Below the pieces are notes generated by a model, which was given only the letters and a program-made list of their open reading frames with translations, searched no databases and had not been told where the DNA came from. Positions 829 through 12,258 of a DNA stretch of 45,892 nt are shown here, one piece after another. The translations under genes and the position numbers were made by a program. The DNA is taken from the NCBI GenBank assembly GCA_014382295.1, contig JACNJZ010000094.1, forward strand, positions 1-45,892, in the 5' to 3' direction. Every line of letters starts with the position of its first letter. Position 1 is the first letter of the stretch. This DNA is from Candidatus Desulfobia pelagia. Its GTDB lineage: Bacteria > Desulfobacterota > Desulfobulbia > Desulfobulbales > SURF-16.

Positions 829-1230
829 CTATTTTTCCGGCGAATTTGAATCAACGGAGCTGAAGATACGCTTCCACACGTCGCACTTTTTGCAGATTGT
901 AATTTTATCAACCCAGCTTTTCTGGGATGCACATTCACATATTGTCCCATTAATAAACCAGCAGAGATTCCCTGACTGGTATTCATATGCAGGACAATTT
1001 TTTTTCAGATCCGGCGGGCATTTTTTCACATCCCAGCAATTTTTAGTGTCTACTCCTCCTCTTCTTTTTGAGAAAAGAAAATAAAGCTGCCGTTCAACAT
1101 GAGGAGGAATATTTCTCCACCCCTGCTCGTAACTGCTCACAGACTTCACTGAGACACCGAGCAGCTCTGCCAGTTCCTTCTGGGTTTTGCCGAGCTGTTT
1201 CCTCATTTTTGTAAATAATAGTTTTTCCAT
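829..1230 (-). CDS. XRE-family HTH transcriptional regulator with C-terminal Cys-rich two-CW domain
   Basis: RKQLGKTQKELAELLGVSVKSVSSYEQG HTH; NCWDVKKC..CPAY..LCWFINGTIC..CKKC (8 Cys). Confidence 0.85.
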   Translation of the reverse strand: MEKLLFTKMRKQLGKTQKELAELLGVSVKSVSSYEQGWRNIPPHVERQLYFLFSKRRGGVDTKNCWDVKKCPPDLKKNCPAYEYQSGNLCWFINGTICECASQKSWVDKITICKKCDVWKRIFSSVDSNSPEK

Positions 1231-1594
1231 GTCTTGTGCTTCCTCTGCTAGTAGTGATCACCGAAACAGGTTTTGTGTAATGTCACAAAATATATTACCA
1301 CATTGTTCCCCCGCCAACAATACAAATCAAACCCCAAACCAGGCAATTAAGCAACACTTTTTGGTAACTATTCAGCAGCACCCCATCTACACACGATCAG
1401 GCCTTATCGCATATGGATATATAGCTCGGCGGCCTGCTTGTGCATACCTGGAGCACTGCTGAATAGTTACAGATCTATAGTTTTCGAAACTATAAGCTTT
1501 TTCGCTGAATAATTACACTTTTTTGTGACAATTTAGCGTCAGGCAAAAACGGTGGAAAAACCACAGCCTTGAGATGTTCACCGCCACTGACTCC

Positions 1595-2071
1595 TTACTC
1601 CTTTTTTTTATAAAAGAAGACGGTGTACGGCTCCGGGTCTCTCACCTGCTCCGAACGGACAATAACATATTGATTTTCCTCAAGTTCCGGGAAAAAAGTA
1701 TCCCCAGCCACCTCACGATCAAGAACGGTGAGAATACACCCGGTCGCCCTTTCCAGCCCAAGGCGGTACAGTTGTGCCCCGCCAATGATAAACACCTGTT
1801 CCGCAGCTCCGCACAAATCGAGAGCTTTTTCAAGACTCCCTGCAATTTCGCAGCCAGGGGCAATGTAGGCATTATTCCGGGTAATCACAATATTTCTGCG
1901 GCCGGGTAGAGGCCGTCCAATTGACTCGTAGGTCTTGCGTCCCATCAAAAGGACATGTCCCCAGGTTATTTCCTTAAAACGCTGCTGCTCGCCTGGAATA
2001 TGCCAGGGGATATCATTATCTCGGCCAATGACACGGTTGGCAGCCATGGCTGCTATAAGGATAATTTCCAT
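1595..2071 (-). CDS. folA: Dihydrofolate reductase
   Basis: IAAMAANRVIG..IPWHIPGE, MGRKTYESIGRPLPGRRNIV, FIIGGAQLY, GDTFFP. Confidence 0.96.
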   Translation of the reverse strand: MEIILIAAMAANRVIGRDNDIPWHIPGEQQRFKEITWGHVLLMGRKTYESIGRPLPGRRNIVITRNNAYIAPGCEIAGSLEKALDLCGAAEQVFIIGGAQLYRLGLERATGCILTVLDREVAGDTFFPELEENQYVIVRSEQVRDPEPYTVFFYKKKE

Positions 2072-2658
2072 CTGTTGTCCTGATATAAAACATGCAGGGG
2101 ATCGCTGAAAAAAACATCCGGGTTGTTTTCCATTCCCCAGTGAAACGATTCTACCGGAAACCCTTCAGAAAGCCAAATGGTGGATATGTGCAGATGAGAA
2201 GGCATGGGCCTTTTTTTGAGTGCCCTATCTGCTATTGCCGCTATTTTTCCCGAATACTTCACTTCTGCGCCACCGGCAATATGAGGCAAAGGATCCACAT
2301 GCCCGTACAGGCTGTAAAGCTGCAGATTATTTTCATCAAAAATTCCATGCTGCAGCAGTATGGTGCGGCCAATTAAATCATCAAAGACACTGACAACTTT
2401 ACCGTCATACAGTGGAGGAACGAATATGCCGGGAGCAAGAGACTTTCTTATCCCCTGATCTGTCATGTAAAAACAGAAGTCAACTCCCTCATGGGGATGG
2501 GTCCTGTTTCCTCCGTCCTCCCACCACTTCTCTGTCTCTCCGAATTGCATTCCCTTTTTAAAATGCCATGCGGCAAAACCATCTTCACCGGAAAGCCTGT
2601 TGAGTGAGAGAAAAACCTCTGTGAATGCCGATGGCGGTATGTCGCTGATACTCTTCAT
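2053..2658 (-). CDS. M23/LytM-like metallopeptidase domain protein
   Basis: HEGVD (HxxxD), YSLYGHV and SHLH (HxH) Zn-ligand motifs; no signal peptide; overlaps folA by 19 bp. Confidence 0.7.
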   Translation of the reverse strand: MKSISDIPPSAFTEVFLSLNRLSGEDGFAAWHFKKGMQFGETEKWWEDGGNRTHPHEGVDFCFYMTDQGIRKSLAPGIFVPPLYDGKVVSVFDDLIGRTILLQHGIFDENNLQLYSLYGHVDPLPHIAGGAEVKYSGKIAAIADRALKKRPMPSHLHISTIWLSEGFPVESFHWGMENNPDVFFSDPLHVLYQDNRWKLSL

Positions 2659-2661
2659 GAC

Positions 2662-3399
2662 TTATAGAGACAAGGCCTCTGCCAGCGCTGTCATTGTTTC
2701 AGAAAATCCTGCGGCAAAACTTATTTCAGCCATCCCCGACAAAGCCAGCTCCTTATTAATCTCTATAATGGAGCCACCGCCATGACGCACACGACCTGGA
2801 ATCATGGAGGCAGGGACCACCTGGCAGGATGTGCCGGCAACAAGAAGCAGGTCAGCACCTCGCAAAAGATCTTCTGTCTGCTGCAGAGCAAGAACAGGAA
2901 TCTGCTCATCAAAAAAGACGACATCAGGCTTCAAAATGGCAGAACAGGTTTCACATTCCGGGGGAAGCGCCATGCGGTGCACTTCATCCAGCTCATATTT
3001 CCTGCCGCACTCCAGACAGGTGAACGCGCGTATTGAGCCATGGAACTCGACAACTGTATGGCTTCCTGCCTTCTGGTGCAGCATATCAATGTTCTGGGTT
3101 ATTATACCCTTCAGGATACCGGACTTTTCAAACTCAGCCATAGCCATATGACCCGCATTAGGCTCCGCATCGGCAATACCAATGAGTTCCCTCAGCATAT
3201 TCCACACCTTCCGGGGGTCCTCTTCAAAAGCGCCTAATGTCCCGTATTCCATAGGATCAAAACGGGCCCAGAGTCCTCCGGCACTGCGAAAATCGGGTAT
3301 CCCGCTCTCAGTACTGACACCGGCCCCGGTCAAAGCAACAGTCTTTCGGCTTTGACGCAGCATTCTGGCTGCTTTCTCTATCGCCTTTTCCCTCTCCAT
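2662..3399 (-). CDS. cobB: NAD-dependent protein deacylase (sirtuin)
   Basis: TGAGVSTESGIPDFR, TQNIDMLHQKAG, HGS, CxxC..CxxC Zn site, LKPDVVFF, GTS. Confidence 0.95.
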   Translation of the reverse strand: MEREKAIEKAARMLRQSRKTVALTGAGVSTESGIPDFRSAGGLWARFDPMEYGTLGAFEEDPRKVWNMLRELIGIADAEPNAGHMAMAEFEKSGILKGIITQNIDMLHQKAGSHTVVEFHGSIRAFTCLECGRKYELDEVHRMALPPECETCSAILKPDVVFFDEQIPVLALQQTEDLLRGADLLLVAGTSCQVVPASMIPGRVRHGGGSIIEINKELALSGMAEISFAAGFSETMTALAEALSL

Positions 3400-3412
3400 A
3401 TTTCCTTCTCCG

Positions 3413-4513
3413 TTACGCCCCTGTTGTCAAGTGATCGCCAAGCCCCTTATGGGAAGAGAGAGTCCCATCTTCCCCATACAGGAAATGTAACGTTGCCAGC
3501 ATATTCGGCGGCCTGTAGTTTCGATCCATGTGCATTCTGTCGACTACACTATGATGCAAAACAGGATACTCTTCAGAAATTTCATCATTTTTATTAACCC
3601 TTACCCACCGACTGGCCAGTGTCGCCCTGGCAACAGGAAACCATCTGTCCTTCGGGTGCATTATACCAACAGGGGAAGGCTTGAGGGTGATATCGTCCGG
3701 TTCAACGGCACAGGGCTCGCCTGCATTTCTCAAATTGGCGTAGTCTATATCTTTCGGAGCGATACTTTCCAGGCCAAGATTCCGTTTTTTTATTTCCCTG
3801 AGAACAAAATCCAGCGCGATATCAGAGAGGCCGTCATGGAAAAAACCACCGCCAACATCGCCGTGGGACCCTGGAAACCATATCTCTGTCACCCTCTGGT
3901 CCTTATTCATCAATGTCGGCTGAAAAGCGATCCTGTTTTCATCCAGAGCCACCAGGTGAAGGGCTTCCTGGACCCCGGCCGCCACGGTGTTATTTTCAAA
4001 CACCACATCCGACACCGGCTTTTCATCGTCATCAAGGTTAGGCAGGCCAAGGGAGGCCACCGTATCAAAAACAGCAAGAAATCGAATTGCGGGTATTGCT
4101 TTTACCCCGTGCAAACCTTTCTGATGGAGGATGGCGGCAAAACGCCGGGCCAGCGCCGCCCCCCGGGAAAAACCAAACAGATAGACAGAATCGCCATCCT
4201 GCCAAATTTCCGACAAATCCTTCCGGGCCCTGTTCAATATCCTTCCGACATCCAGATTTTCCGGAGCAAACACCACATTAAACAACCTCTGCAAATGATT
4301 GCCATACGTGCCGACACCAGAATAATACAGGCCGTGCTGCCTTTCATTCTGTGCCTTGTTCAGCATATTGCCGCCGAGCAGAAGATGCAGTTTGACAATA
4401 TTGGTGATACTGCTGTCCTCTATCCTGCCAAGCCCAAACCACTCCCGTTCCTGCTCAGCATCTTTCGGATGGTTATTTGTTCCATCAAAACAGATGGTGA
4501 TTTTTTTACCCAT
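3413..4513 (-). CDS. DUF2235 alpha/beta hydrolase (Tle1 phospholipase-like catalytic domain)
   Basis: ICFDGTNN, YYSGVGT, FGFSRGAALAR nucleophile motif, VFDTV, ALDENR, WFPGSHGDVGGG. Confidence 0.9.
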   Translation of the reverse strand: MGKKITICFDGTNNHPKDAEQEREWFGLGRIEDSSITNIVKLHLLLGGNMLNKAQNERQHGLYYSGVGTYGNHLQRLFNVVFAPENLDVGRILNRARKDLSEIWQDGDSVYLFGFSRGAALARRFAAILHQKGLHGVKAIPAIRFLAVFDTVASLGLPNLDDDEKPVSDVVFENNTVAAGVQEALHLVALDENRIAFQPTLMNKDQRVTEIWFPGSHGDVGGGFFHDGLSDIALDFVLREIKKRNLGLESIAPKDIDYANLRNAGEPCAVEPDDITLKPSPVGIMHPKDRWFPVARATLASRWVRVNKNDEISEEYPVLHHSVVDRMHMDRNYRPPNMLATLHFLYGEDGTLSSHKGLGDHLTTGA

Positions 4514-7485: not shown

Positions 7486-7528
7486 AAAAAAAGCGGCGGA
7501 GAGGTTACCCTCTTCCACCGCTTTTTTT
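7486..7528. terminator. Bidirectional intrinsic terminator between convergent lon and the selenoprotein gene
   Basis: A7-GCGGCGGAGAGG-TTAC-CCTCTTCCACCGC-T7. Confidence 0.85.
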
Positions 7529-7551: not shown

Positions 7552-9687
7552 CTACTCAACAGCACAGAAATTAACCCATGAAGCATCATGGACCCTGACA
7601 TCGTCAAAGCCCAGGTAACGGAACATAAAGTAGGCGCTTCCGGCAAGCTGGCCAGTATTACAGCTTGTGATAACGGTATGCTTGGGAGTAATGCCATTTT
7701 TCTTCAGCATCCAGAGCAACTCATCCGGTTTTTTCAGCGCGCCGTTTTCCATATAGAGTGCGCTGAGAGGCAGGTTAATGGAGCCTGGAATCCTTCCGGC
7801 ACGTGCCGCCTGACCGTGTTTGGCCAAACCTTTTGCCTGGCTGACGATACGGGAATCGATAATCTTGACCATATTATTATCAAGATTTGCCCTGACATAA
7901 TCATTGTCAACCGTAAACCCTGGATTGACTGTGCCACCGAAGGCAACCTCTTCAGGCTCGACTTCCTCATCCGACATATGATAACCGGCCTCATGCCACC
8001 CTTCTATGCCGCCATCAAGATAAGAAACGTTGGTTGCACCGGCATATTCAAGTACCCAAATAATAAATCCGGCATTTTTCCCATCTTTGTCATATACGAC
8101 GATATGGTCATCAGCTTTTAAACCTTGTTCACCTATAATCTCAATAAGTTCATTATCTGCGATAAGCTGCATTGGGAAATCATCATCCCACGAGTGGCGT
8201 AATCCTGACTGAATCGGATCTAGAGGGACAGCACCTTTGATATGCCCCTTCTCATAAGGACCTTCCCCTCTTGCATCAACAATTTTCACACCTTTTTTCC
8301 CGATGTTATCATGCAGCCATTTGGCATCGACGACCATGTTATGCCTGACTTTGCTGGTATCAATATTGAGAGGCATGACCTTTTTACGCTTCTTGGGAAC
8401 CTTGTTGTCCGGTACGACAACCTTGGCATTTGCCTCTATTTCGTAGTCAAGAAGATCTTTTGTATCCAAAAAGAGCTCTCGGTTTCCATGGCAGTTATTA
8501 CAGTTGGCTGTCTGCCAGGTTTTACGCTGAATATTATGCGGTGAAGTACGCTTCCAGTTCGGAGTGTTGCTGAAGTTGGTGAACGCGTCTTTCACATAGA
8601 AATCAAAAAGTTTCGGATCCGTGGGTTCATGACGGACCAGGATATATTTATTCGTCTGGTTCGGCTCATCCTTGTCATAGTTAAGGCCAATTTTCATGCC
8701 TTCAACTTCTTTCTGGTTCTGGAAGTAGCGGAGGCCTTCATCGTCTTTACCGGTATGACAACTGTAGCAATTGACATATGTCTGGGAATGACATACCTGA
8801 CACTGGACTTTACCAACATGCAGATTATGATCTCGCACAGATCCATATTTCAGGTCCTGATGACAGTCCTCACAATTCACCATCTCTTTCAGATGGTAGC
8901 GGCCTTTCAAGCCTTCAGGAGCGGCAGCATGCATTTCTTCTGCCGGATGACAGGCCACACAGTCCATATCATACTTGGTCACATGAACGTCACCCTCACC
9001 GCGAGATCCGTAGTACTCAGCGCCTACCCTACTGCCATGACAGGCAGTACACTGGTTAAACGGATCAGACCGTTTCTGGAACATATGGCCATCTATAAAT
9101 CCTTTCTTGGCAAATTTCGGACGGCTGACATGACACCCGCCGCAACTTGTATGACATGCAGCACAATGACCTTTACGAGCCTCGTCAATTTCATGCCACT
9201 TGTTCATATCAGAACGGGTTTTCAGCACTGTTGTAAAAGTTGATAGAGTAGCATGCAGAGAATCTTTTGCCGTAGAGACTATATCTTCATGGCATTCCCC
9301 ACAGGCACCTTCAGGATTGTTAATGGATGGATGGGGATCAAAATCTTTATGGGCGCCGGCTTTAGTTTTATCAGCAGGATTTCCACCGTGACAGTTTTCA
9401 CAGCCGACCTCGCCATGATCTGTTTCCAGAAAATCACCAGACACCAGAACTTTTTCGACTGGCCCCAACGGGGCCACTTTTCCGCCTCAGCCTGCACCTG
9501 ACTGTTTGGCAGACCCCTTTTTCTTGACGACAGTTATATTTTCTTCCAACATTACTTCGTCAGTATGGCAGCCGATACAGCTCGACTCACTTGCAAAGGC
9601 CTTCCCGACACCAATAAAGGGAATCAGCCCTGCGGCCAGAATGGTGACACATGCACCAAACAAACATCGCTCTTTCCATTTTTCCAT
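7552..9687 (-). CDS. Predicted 711-aa selenocysteine-containing undecaheme cytochrome c with tandem rhodanese domains (Sec67 = TGA at 9489..9487); joins ORF-track ORFs 9487..9687 and 7552..9477
   Basis: Continuous frame ...GGT GCA GGC TGA GGC GGA AAA GTG GCC...; AGGAGGT SD and signal peptide only on the upstream part; SECIS-like hairpin after the TGA; CxxCH x11 (CIGCH, CENCH, CGECH, CAACH, CGGCH, CTACH, CVACH, CEDCH, CQVCH, CYSCH, CNNCH); rhodanese motifs GHIKGA, YLDGG, GRIPGS, SCNTG, DASW. Confidence 0.85.
9460..9476 (-). promoter_or_regulatory. Bacterial SECIS-like hairpin
   Basis: mRNA UGA-GGCGGAAAAG-UGGCCCC-GUU-GGGGCCA: perfect 7-bp stem; loop starts with GU, 18 nt downstream of the UGA. 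Confidence 0.8.
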
Positions 9688-9808: not shown

Positions 9809-10996
9809 TTAATCATCATCGGAATCTAATTCTTCCCACCCGTCGGTCAGGGTTTCAAGAAAAACAACTAGATCTTCGAGTTCCTGGTTGGTCAGTTTCA
9901 GATTGCCGAGTTCCTCCCTGTTCACATTCTCGGCAACTTCAGGGTCTGGCCAACAGGAGACGTCACGAGTGTTATAGAAGGCCAAGACATTGAACAGCGT
10001 CTTATATACACCATTGTGCAGATAAGGGGCGGTGATTGCAACATTGCGAAGAGTTGGTACACGAAATTTGCCATTCTGCGCCGGATCATTGACAGTCTTT
10101 CCCAACCCCAGGTCAATGAAGGAAAAACCGTCAGGGTTCAGCTCAGGAGGTAAAGAGTAGAAAGGATTTTCCGGATTCCGAGGTGTCCCCAGATTGTCAT
10201 ATGTGAAATCAGTAAAAAGCGGCGGGGTCCCATCCTCTTCAGGTCTGCTTGGATGACAGGCAGCGCAGTTTCCCTTCTCTTCGTCATCAAAAAGCTTTAA
10301 ACCCCGTAATTCCTGTTCACTCAATTCAGCTTCACCCCGAAGCCAGTGGTCATACTTTGAACTGAAAGGATTTACCTCGGGGGTCATCTCATAAGCCGCA
10401 ATGGCATCTGCCATGTTGTCGAAAGCCAAGTCTGGAGTACTCAGGGCCTCAGATCCGTAAACTTCAATAAAAAGAGAAGCATAGCTAAGCTGCCTCAGTT
10501 TCTCAACAATGGTCAGCGTATCAGGATTGGCCATTTCCAGAGGATTAAGCGGTGGCCCCTGGGCTTGCTCGGCCAAAGAGTTAACCCGACCATCCCAGAA
10601 AAGCCCGCCAACCCAGACGTCTTCTCCTTTGTTGAAATGCAAAGGCGGCACAAAAGCAGCATAGGAAACAGTCATATCATTTCGATTGCCGAATAAACCG
10701 GGACGGGCTCCTTTGGAAACCGGCAGACCAGTTAAAGGATCAGCAAAGGCTATTTCAGGATCGTGGCAGGCTGAACAGTCCTGACCTGGTGGTGTCGAAA
10801 GGCTCTTCTCAAAAAACAGCAGCTTACCAAGGCGCTCCTTGGCATTAAAAGATGAATCAATTGAGACGACAGGTAACTCGTGATCATCTTCATCATGATC
10901 GTCATGTAAATTTTTAGCACAGCCACCGAGAAGGAACACCGCCAGCAGAGCAATGACGGACAACTCGCATAAATGAAATCTTTTCTGACCAACCAT
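9809..10996 (-). CDS. Diheme cytochrome c peroxidase / MauG-family lipoprotein
   Basis: Lipobox LLGGC, LGKLLFFE, CSACH, FWDGR, PPLNPLEM, CAACH, FRVPTLRNV..TAPYLHNG. Confidence 0.92.
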   Translation of the reverse strand: MVGQKRFHLCELSVIALLAVFLLGGCAKNLHDDHDEDDHELPVVSIDSSFNAKERLGKLLFFEKSLSTPPGQDCSACHDPEIAFADPLTGLPVSKGARPGLFGNRNDMTVSYAAFVPPLHFNKGEDVWVGGLFWDGRVNSLAEQAQGPPLNPLEMANPDTLTIVEKLRQLSYASLFIEVYGSEALSTPDLAFDNMADAIAAYEMTPEVNPFSSKYDHWLRGEAELSEQELRGLKLFDDEEKGNCAACHPSRPEEDGTPPLFTDFTYDNLGTPRNPENPFYSLPPELNPDGFSFIDLGLGKTVNDPAQNGKFRVPTLRNVAITAPYLHNGVYKTLFNVLAFYNTRDVSCWPDPEVAENVNREELGNLKLTNQELEDLVVFLETLTDGWEELDSDDD

Positions 10997-11754: not shown

Positions 11755-11811
11755 AAAAACAAGCTGACCGGGAAACCCGATGCACCAGCGGCTACAGCCG
11801 CCCTATGGGCG

Positions 11812-12258
11812 TCATCTGCTGCGCCCTTGGCCTCCCTTGCTGTTACCTTGTCCGCCGCCGCGACCACCACCGTGCCCGCTTTTGCCTCCGCCGTATCCGC
11901 CCTTACTGCCTCCAAACCCACCTTTATCACCACCAAATCCACCTCTACCACCGCCCTGTCCGCCTCTGCCTCCGCCCTGTCCACCTCTGCTGCCGCCTCT
12001 ACTATCACGCTTTTCAGGGCGTGGACTCGCCTCATTGACCTTAAGGGGTCTCCCTTTCAGATCTTTACCGTTCAAGCCTTCCATTGCAGCCTGGCCCGCA
12101 GCTTTGGAGGCCATCTCCACGAATCCAAAACCTTTTGACTTGCCAGTCAATTGATCGTTAATAATGATAGCGGACAGAACCTCTCCGAATTCTTCCAACG
12201 CAAGCCGCAAATCCTTTCCAGTGACATCGTATGACAAATTCCCAACATAAATCTTCAT
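11812..12258 (-). CDS. RRM RNA-binding protein (Rbp family) with Gly/RGG-rich tail
   Basis: RNP2 IYVGNL, RNP1 KGFGFVEM, LKVNEA; AAGGAG SD. Confidence 0.96.
   Translation of the reverse strand: MKIYVGNLSYDVTGKDLRLALEEFGEVLSAIIINDQLTGKSKGFGFVEMASKAAGQAAMEGLNGKDLKGRPLKVNEASPRPEKRDSRGGSRGGQGGGRGGQGGGRGGFGGDKGGFGGSKGGYGGGKSGHGGGRGGGQGNSKGGQGRSR

Follow-up and report, generated by a model that had tools for sequence, protein, structure and literature searches.

Multiheme cytochrome c selenoenzymes have been established as a kind of enzyme only with MccSep (2026). This protein, which is the same as ExtKL, is a five-heme, tetrameric polysulfide reductase in which the selenocysteine (Sec) U325 lies beside a His/Cys-ligated heme; it combines a Cys heme ligand with a Sec residue and also reduces selenite (PMC13510729). 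In the available part of PMC6148476, the same Geobacter cluster is described as encoding ExtH, a rhodanese-family lipoprotein, and the ext cluster is linked to the reduction of selenite and tellurite. The 711-residue protein analyzed in this work, here fused to a sulfur carrier, represents a second family of multiheme cytochrome c selenoproteins, larger than that of MccSep and unrelated to it. Its gene lies on the minus strand of contig JACNJZ010000094.1 of Candidatus Desulfobia pelagia and is read from 9687 to 7552; the whole analyzed stretch of 45,892 nt is referred to as the window, and coordinates are positions in it unless another contig is named. Attention had been drawn to the locus by an earlier reading of the sequence alone (the original prediction), which proposed that two annotated open reading frames (ORFs) form one protein read through a UGA and which named ExtKL, encoded near the rhodanese ExtH, as a precedent for a multiheme selenoprotein. 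The characterization of MccSep shows this precedent to be real (PMC13510729).

ExtKL of Geobacter sulfurreducens (GSU2937-2936; NF040886, cut-off 250 bits; PDB 9wt8/9wt9) served as the comparator. In both cases a periplasmic multiheme cytochrome c, predicted as such for the 711-aa protein, contains one Sec, the in-frame UGA leads annotation to split the gene into two ORFs, a hairpin resembling a selenocysteine insertion sequence (SECIS) follows the UGA, and the family comprises Sec and Cys forms. Further likenesses are the genomic tie to a rhodanese, ExtH in Geobacter, and a polysulfide chemistry that is a proposal for the present protein. The two differ in the number of hemes (five against 11), in the position of Sec, which is found in a C-terminal immunoglobulin-like domain (DGUP) of ExtKL and in an N-terminal GAGUGG motif between hemes 1 and 2 of the 711-aa protein, and in the rhodanese, which is separate in the former and fused in the latter. 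Unlike MccSep, the 711-aa protein has no conserved non-motif Cys able to ligate a heme. A comparison with NF040886 gave no match at E 0.01, and the MccSep chains were not found among PDB sequences at E 1. A true ExtKL homologue is encoded elsewhere in the same genome (contig C67, L018:217-1440, plus strand); it has five CxxCH motifs, an in-frame TGA in ...IPDGU... and a TGA also as its real stop codon, scores 424 bits with NF040886 and matches PDB 9wt9 at E 2e-39. BLASTP between this homologue and the 711-aa protein yielded at best 26 bits, in a gap-rich CxxCH stretch. Membership of the 711-aa protein in the ExtKL/MccSep family was rejected because of the missing NF040886 match, the 11 motifs, the different Sec site and the lack of a ligand Cys, and the original impression that the architecture differs from that of ExtKL proved correct.

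None of the NCBIfam models covers the 11-heme family. A May 2026 review of the selenoproteome includes, in its accessible part, ExtKL, the octaheme TIGR04315 family, the CXXCH protein GSU2204 and rhodanese forms 1-5, and the 11-heme rhodanese family is missing from that part of the catalogue (PMC13188914). The entry renamed ExtKL there is the "cytochrome c family protein" of PMC9312934, as far as the accessible parts of the two sources go. The tetrathionate reductase family octaheme cytochrome (TIGR04315) was rejected as an assignment, with 23 bits against a cut-off of 375 bits. No 11-heme or rhodanese-fused cytochrome selenoprotein is described in the literature surveyed, which includes the accessible portions of PMC5029168, PMC12142623, PMC12545173, PMC10376724, PMC13490349, PMC3543383 and PMC6148476; the supplements of PMC13510729 (data S1/S2) and of Peng 2016 may list sequences.

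The reading frame across the UGA codon

The 66-aa upstream ORF ends with GGT GCA GGC TGA and continues in frame with GGC GGA AAA GTG into the 641-aa downstream ORF. From the ATG at 9687-9685 to the TAG at 7554-7552, a single frame is open except for the TGA at 9489-9487, and relatives match the full length with exactly one TGA. Read-through would give 711 residues (7552..9687, minus strand) with Sec67 in the motif GAGUGG. The in-frame join is thus as originally described, in an account that had left the strand unstated, and the same holds for the strong Shine-Dalgarno sequence ahead of the upstream ORF: GAGGAGGT can be read directly at 9700-9693 (minus strand), 5 nt ahead of the ATG. The TGA is no assembly error, because it recurs in three metagenome assemblies that stem from two other studies: contigs of runs X5, X6 and X7 span the site, and their only differences from the window are at 8465, 8743 and 8752. 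A contig of run X8, whose coverage does not extend to the TGA, differs at 9002.

Alignment of the TGA column across homologues had been set beforehand as a test of the prediction, and it was carried out with 401 genomes of the same class (class sample) and 401 genomes across the phylum (phylum sample). The family is present in 80 of the class genomes and 44 of the phylum genomes and forms 473 clusters at 50% identity. Three groups are distinguished. Group A comprises fused proteins of about 711 aa and at least 57% identity, including the protein of this genome; group B is a fused sister clade of 17 rows with 40-43% identity and without the stop codon; group C consists of cytochrome-only relatives with 37-43% identity. 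Exactly one TGA, in frame, was found in all 38 group A matches of the class sample, and one TGA likewise in the 25 group C relatives of that sample. Of the 46 non-self rows of the phylum sample, 45 retain the TGA, down to 32% identity; the remaining row begins at residue 152 and so leaves the column uncovered. All 13 named contigs of metagenome-assembled genomes that cover the site have the TGA in a motif SG[AS]GUGG, and all 20 fetched phylum loci display GxGU[GA]G plus a hairpin. The part upstream of the TGA, including its CxxCH, is conserved as protein in 47/47 full-length rows.

Sec columns are expected to pair with Cys in some relatives, and such pairs were observed. Cys occupies the column in two group B rows (L025, L089). 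Among the best 150 representatives of the 473 clusters, 34 cover the column; ten of these have Cys, typically in xCGG, and four more have it one position off.

A SECIS-like hairpin with a 7-bp stem and an apical GUU (U GGCCCC GUU GGGGCC A) occupies 9460..9476 on the minus strand and starts 11 nt after the UGA. A hairpin just 3' of the UGA had been claimed from the single sequence, and compensatory changes across relatives now speak for it. In 34 aligned sequences, 93% of the cells are paired and 15 cells are changed on both sides. Pair 26:36 is CG in 21, UA in six, AU in four and UG in one sequence, and pair 27:35 is UA in 27, GC in three, CG in one and UG in two. The covariation score was reached by none of 500 shuffles, and sliding the partner strand lowers pairing to 33-47%. 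The arms are exchanged in three loci, with GGAGCC/GGCUCC for GGCUCC/GGAGCC, and one subclade (L021, L040) has a shifted hairpin with a 4-nt loop (GCUC or GGUC). Since the innermost pair is lost in four sequences, the apical loop is probably the 5-nt NGUUN. By folding energy, the 81 nt that surround the UGA are no more stable than shuffles (z -0.36), and the support for the hairpin therefore comes from conservation and covariation.

The machinery for Sec insertion, for which a check of selA, selB, selC and selD had been proposed, is complete in this genome: selB (367 bits), selA (625 bits), selD (366 bits) and tRNA-Sec (73 bits) all score above curated cut-offs. As TGA ends 368 of 1179 long ORFs (31%), its code is standard and not reassigned. 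The selD gene itself, on contig C204 (L010, L012), has an in-frame TGA, which makes SelD a selenoprotein as well, and the tRNA-Sec gene lies about 1.6 kb from it on the same strand. A tRNA scan of the window returned none.

Taken together, the conserved TGA, the Sec/Cys pairs, the covarying hairpin and the Sec machinery support the predicted 711-aa protein with Sec67 (codon 9487..9489, minus strand). That 9687-7552 is one gene for an exported 711-aa selenoprotein is, on the strength of comparative sequence evidence, close to certain.

Protein architecture, family and genomic surroundings

A Sec-pathway signal peptide is predicted for residues 1-32 (9592..9687, minus strand), with a charged n-region, a hydrophobic core and probable cleavage after AFA, ahead of SE. 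No lipobox was seen at its end when the sequence was inspected. The hydropathy maximum over 15 residues is 2.42 at this N-terminus. Because the first 60 residues of the 641-aa ORF reach just 0.74, that ORF taken alone is, by its sequence, without an export signal; the signal peptide is confined to the upstream part, as had been proposed. The motif count of the original prediction was likewise reproduced, with one CxxCH upstream of the TGA and ten downstream, 11 in total. Heme motif 1 (CIGCH, residues 37-41, 9565..9579, minus strand) precedes the UGA and is a CxxCH in 47/47 full-length rows. Motifs 2-11 define a multiheme cytochrome c region from residue 96 to 400 (8488..9402, minus strand), identified by the motifs and the alignment; they begin at residues 96, 129, 175, 182, 213, 243, 272, 296, 307 and 396, and all are invariant in alignment A1. 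The calculated mass of the mature protein with 11 hemes is about 82 kDa.

Pfam assigned multiheme cytochrome domains and, from residue 455 on, two rhodanese domains. The tandem rhodanese module spans residues 447-707 (7567..8349, minus strand) and matches PF00581 in two stretches (3e-31; 108 bits, cut-off 22.2); as in tandem-type rhodaneses, it is the second domain that holds the catalytic Cys. Over their whole length, the C-terminal 260 residues can be aligned with bovine rhodanese (1rhd; 1e-22, residues 447-706) and with Escherichia coli SseA (1urh), and in Foldseek the module superposes with a template modelling (TM) score of 0.80-0.86 to the target. In distinction from these two enzymes, the module here is predicted to be exported, is fused behind an 11-heme cytochrome and has the catalytic loop CNTGQLA. 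The active-site Cys676 of this loop (codon 7660..7662, minus strand) is aligned to the rhodanese catalytic loop and is invariant in 53/53 group A and 17/17 group B rows (70/70). An assignment to SseA proper, 3-mercaptopyruvate sulfurtransferase, was rejected with 108 bits against the 250-bit cut-off of the equivalog NF008557, and the name 'SseA' that databases give to the truncated ORFs is unjustified because the score lies below that cut-off. The predicted model has a mean predicted local distance difference test (pLDDT) value of 85, and the loop of residues 68-72 falls below 50. Fold searches with the cytochrome part, of which the model is mediocre, gave no match.

For the cytochrome domain, a quick FastTree tree of 71 sequences was built and rooted at the midpoint, after L041, L046, L050, L051 and L060 had been dropped as wrong ORFs or partial sequences. 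The fused proteins of groups A and B come together in a single clan (support 1.0), which is embedded among Sec forms of the cytochrome-only type. Inside group B, the two Cys forms are the first to branch, and the Tyr forms are derived. This suggests a single fusion event and a loss of Sec through Cys to Tyr. As copies of both types, A and B, occur in genome G133, group B is a paralogue and not the product of a loss of the Sec machinery. On the contig of a single-amplified genome that carries L046, an 830-aa open frame with 12 CxxCH (minus strand, 921-3410) is situated close to the orthologue, on the other strand.

Rhodanese genes recur beside the relatives that are not fused. Of the 20 cytochrome-only phylum loci, 13 have a rhodanese gene 80-270 nt downstream and one has it upstream, and in 6/6 group C loci two to three rhodanese genes follow the cytochrome. 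Cytochrome and rhodanese are therefore taken to act together, since they are fused in one clade and adjacent elsewhere. A DUF3373 gene is found directly upstream of the group B gene in 17/17 loci (L025, L084-L099); the other usual neighbours of group B genes encode a Tll0287-like/HAMP protein and a di-heme cytochrome of small size. In the window, a gene for a CCP_MauG-type di-heme peroxidase (9809-10996, minus strand) lies 121 nt upstream of the selenoprotein gene on the same strand; it has no counterpart beside the other loci compared and is found in this window only. Between the selenoprotein gene and the convergent lon gene, a two-way intrinsic terminator is predicted at 7486..7528 (-30.9 kcal/mol, z -6.7); none of 200 shuffles is equally stable, and the element is flanked by an A-run and a T-run.

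Several other features were noted in passing. A third candidate multiheme selenoprotein, with a signal peptide, is encoded in the same genome on contig C92 (L120:2338-4287, plus strand) and on contig C101. Its TGA lies in ...GHLGKWUPPS... between hemes 1 and 2 and is kept in 9/9 non-self rows that cover the N-terminal part (eight in the genomes of seven relatives, one on C101), the open frames of relatives are 1000-1300 aa long, and no NCBIfam model fits, the best being methano7heme with 44 bits against a cut-off of 250. In the window, a SIR2-family gene (2662-3399) adjoins a gene with a Tle1-like phospholipase domain of the type VI secretion system (3413-4513; both minus strand), and the two could be a defence/effector pair. 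A gene for a glycine-rich RNA-binding protein with an RNA recognition motif (11812-12258, minus strand) is overlapped by long antisense Pro/Ala-rich ORFs (11780-12258), which are probably artefacts of GGN repeats.

Proposed function and competing explanations

In Wolinella succinogenes, the periplasmic polysulfide-sulfur transferase Sud feeds the polysulfide reductase Psr, a molybdopterin enzyme. A comparable course of events can be conceived for the 711-aa protein, the first stages of which are backed by the comparative evidence: translation starts at the ATG behind the strong Shine-Dalgarno sequence, and SelB with Sec-tRNA(Sec) decodes UGA-67 as directed by the hairpin. Export by way of the signal peptide then brings the protein into the periplasm, and the Ccm system can attach 11 c-type hemes to it there. 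As for the later stages, sulfane sulfur of polysulfide, S0 or thiosulfate may be captured by the tandem rhodanese, with Cys676 as the site of the persulfide, and Sec67, on its Gly-flanked and poorly ordered loop, may serve as a mobile nucleophile that attacks the persulfide and yields a Se-S intermediate. The 11-heme chain would supply electrons, with sulfide as the product, or remove them in sulfide oxidation or disproportionation. The scheme resembles Sud/Psr in that a periplasmic rhodanese-type carrier hands sulfane sulfur to a reductase, and differs from it in that Psr has neither hemes c nor Sec in that role. It also resembles the polysulfide reductase pair of ExtH and ExtKL/MccSep, as that pair is thought to act, on an unrelated cytochrome and in fused form. 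By this analogy, the protein may be a periplasmic sulfur-compound oxidoreductase engaged in sulfane-sulfur/polysulfide redox chemistry, an assignment for which we consider the odds even.

The explanation as a whole, a selenoprotein with a function in sulfur redox chemistry, is given a probability of roughly 0.85. Several points weigh against it. The substrate is deduced from the domain content and by analogy to ExtKL/MccSep, an unrelated family, and the fused Sec-type gene of group A has no conserved neighbour among the loci compared and no operon context. The apical loop of the E. coli fdhF SECIS is larger than the GUU or NGUUN seen here, and an Rfam scan of 9350-9600 gave two chance-level matches and no bacterial SECIS family. 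Tyr stands at the Sec column in 15 of the 17 group B rows. Trp or other non-Cys residues at this column had been named at the outset as grounds for abandoning the prediction. The checks set at that time all favoured it, among them that for Cys in some homologues, and Tyr in group B is a qualification: it is no refutation of Sec in the group A gene, but it bears on the role of the residue: as Tyr is incapable of selenol or thiol nucleophilic chemistry, the residue at column 67 may have another role, for instance as a heme ligand.

The same selenoprotein might instead act mainly on selenite or tellurite, on metals or as an outward electron conduit, with the rhodanese in a secondary part. This would fit with the reduction of selenite by MccSep (PMC13510729), with the tie of the ext cluster to selenite and tellurite in the available part of PMC6148476, with a Pfam match, albeit weak, to the MtrC/MtrF domain (PF22113, 31.8 bits against a cut-off of 30) and with the DUF3373 gene at every locus of the Tyr/Cys clade. 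The invariant rhodanese Cys and the linkage of cytochrome and rhodanese across the phylum speak against it, however, as do the lack of a conserved porin or outer-membrane partner of the Sec-type gene and the signal peptide that ends without a lipobox, and we regard it as unlikely.

A different role has also been weighed for Sec67, namely that of distal axial ligand of one c-type heme (His/selenolate), with the Cys and Tyr forms as equivalents and catalysis similar to that of TsdA or SoxAX. The residues at the column in groups A-C are U, C and Y, and selenolate, thiolate and phenolate can all be anionic heme ligands. Nine non-motif His conserved in all three groups, Met241 and residue 67 make 11 candidates for 11 hemes, apart from column 67, residues 30-445 contain no non-motif Cys that is conserved, and Tyr forms are ill-suited to a purely nucleophilic role. 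On the other hand, 12 non-motif His are conserved in group A, enough for bis-His ligation at all 11 hemes; more distant homologues have W, L, G or other residues at the column, where their alignment is uncertain; and the loop is modelled with low confidence. TsdA and SoxAX are His/Cys-ligated heme enzymes (as cited in PMC13510729), and the likeness would consist in a c-type cytochrome with a chalcogen side chain at the heme for S-S chemistry; PDB sequence and fold searches gave no match to either. Ligation by Sec67 thus appears rather improbable, and we are just as doubtful of a combined version in which Sec67 would be both distal heme ligand and catalytic chalcogen, would take sulfane sulfur from the fused rhodanese and would have the Cys and Tyr forms as derivatives.

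Far less tenable is the view that the locus gives two products, a small monoheme peptide that stops at the UGA and a 641-aa protein restarted at the GTG at 9477. Seven nucleotides ahead of this GTG there is a weak Shine-Dalgarno-like GAGG, which falls within the conserved UGA-GGC-GG, and gene callers do divide the family in this manner. As had been anticipated for standard pipelines, 120/120 best database matches are 549-652 aa long, cover 77-90% of the query and are called from after the TGA, under names such as "rhodanese-like protein", "rhodanese-like domain-containing protein", "SseA" or "hypothetical"; 39 of the best 150 cluster representatives begin between query residues 70 and 74. Attachment of c-type hemes by Ccm occurs outside the cytoplasm, in the periplasm, and yet the 641-aa ORF with its ten CxxCH lacks a signal peptide. 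Its GTG start is not conserved (the codon specifies V, A, E or S in relatives), while the TGA, the motif and the covarying hairpin are kept down to 32% identity. These findings back the earlier argument that the downstream ORF alone is implausible, and two separate products are highly improbable. A pseudogene, a sequencing or assembly error, or a reading of the UGA other than as Sec is barely credible, given the TGA in three runs of two other studies and in all orthologues, the conservation of both halves as protein, the use of TGA as a stop in 31% of long ORFs and the complete Sec machinery.

Possible meaning for sulfur metabolism

The split gene calls imply that this family is missed when the sulfur metabolism of Desulfobulbia and other Desulfobacterota is modelled from genomes, and that the dependence of these bacteria on selenium is underestimated. 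With U, C and Y at one column, the family provides a natural experiment on the contribution that a selenol makes next to hemes. If Sec67 were indeed both ligand and catalyst, the protein would contain a natural His/selenolate-ligated heme, and its widespread family would be a candidate for the missing periplasmic enzyme that handles S0 and polysulfide in sulfur-disproportionating and sulfide-oxidising Desulfobulbia. To our knowledge, the capture of zero-valent sulfur and its coupling step are still unresolved for sulfur disproportionation. The fusion of the rhodanese to the cytochrome, or its adjacency, provides a testable hypothesis for a periplasmic capture of zero-valent sulfur that is coupled to a heme wire.

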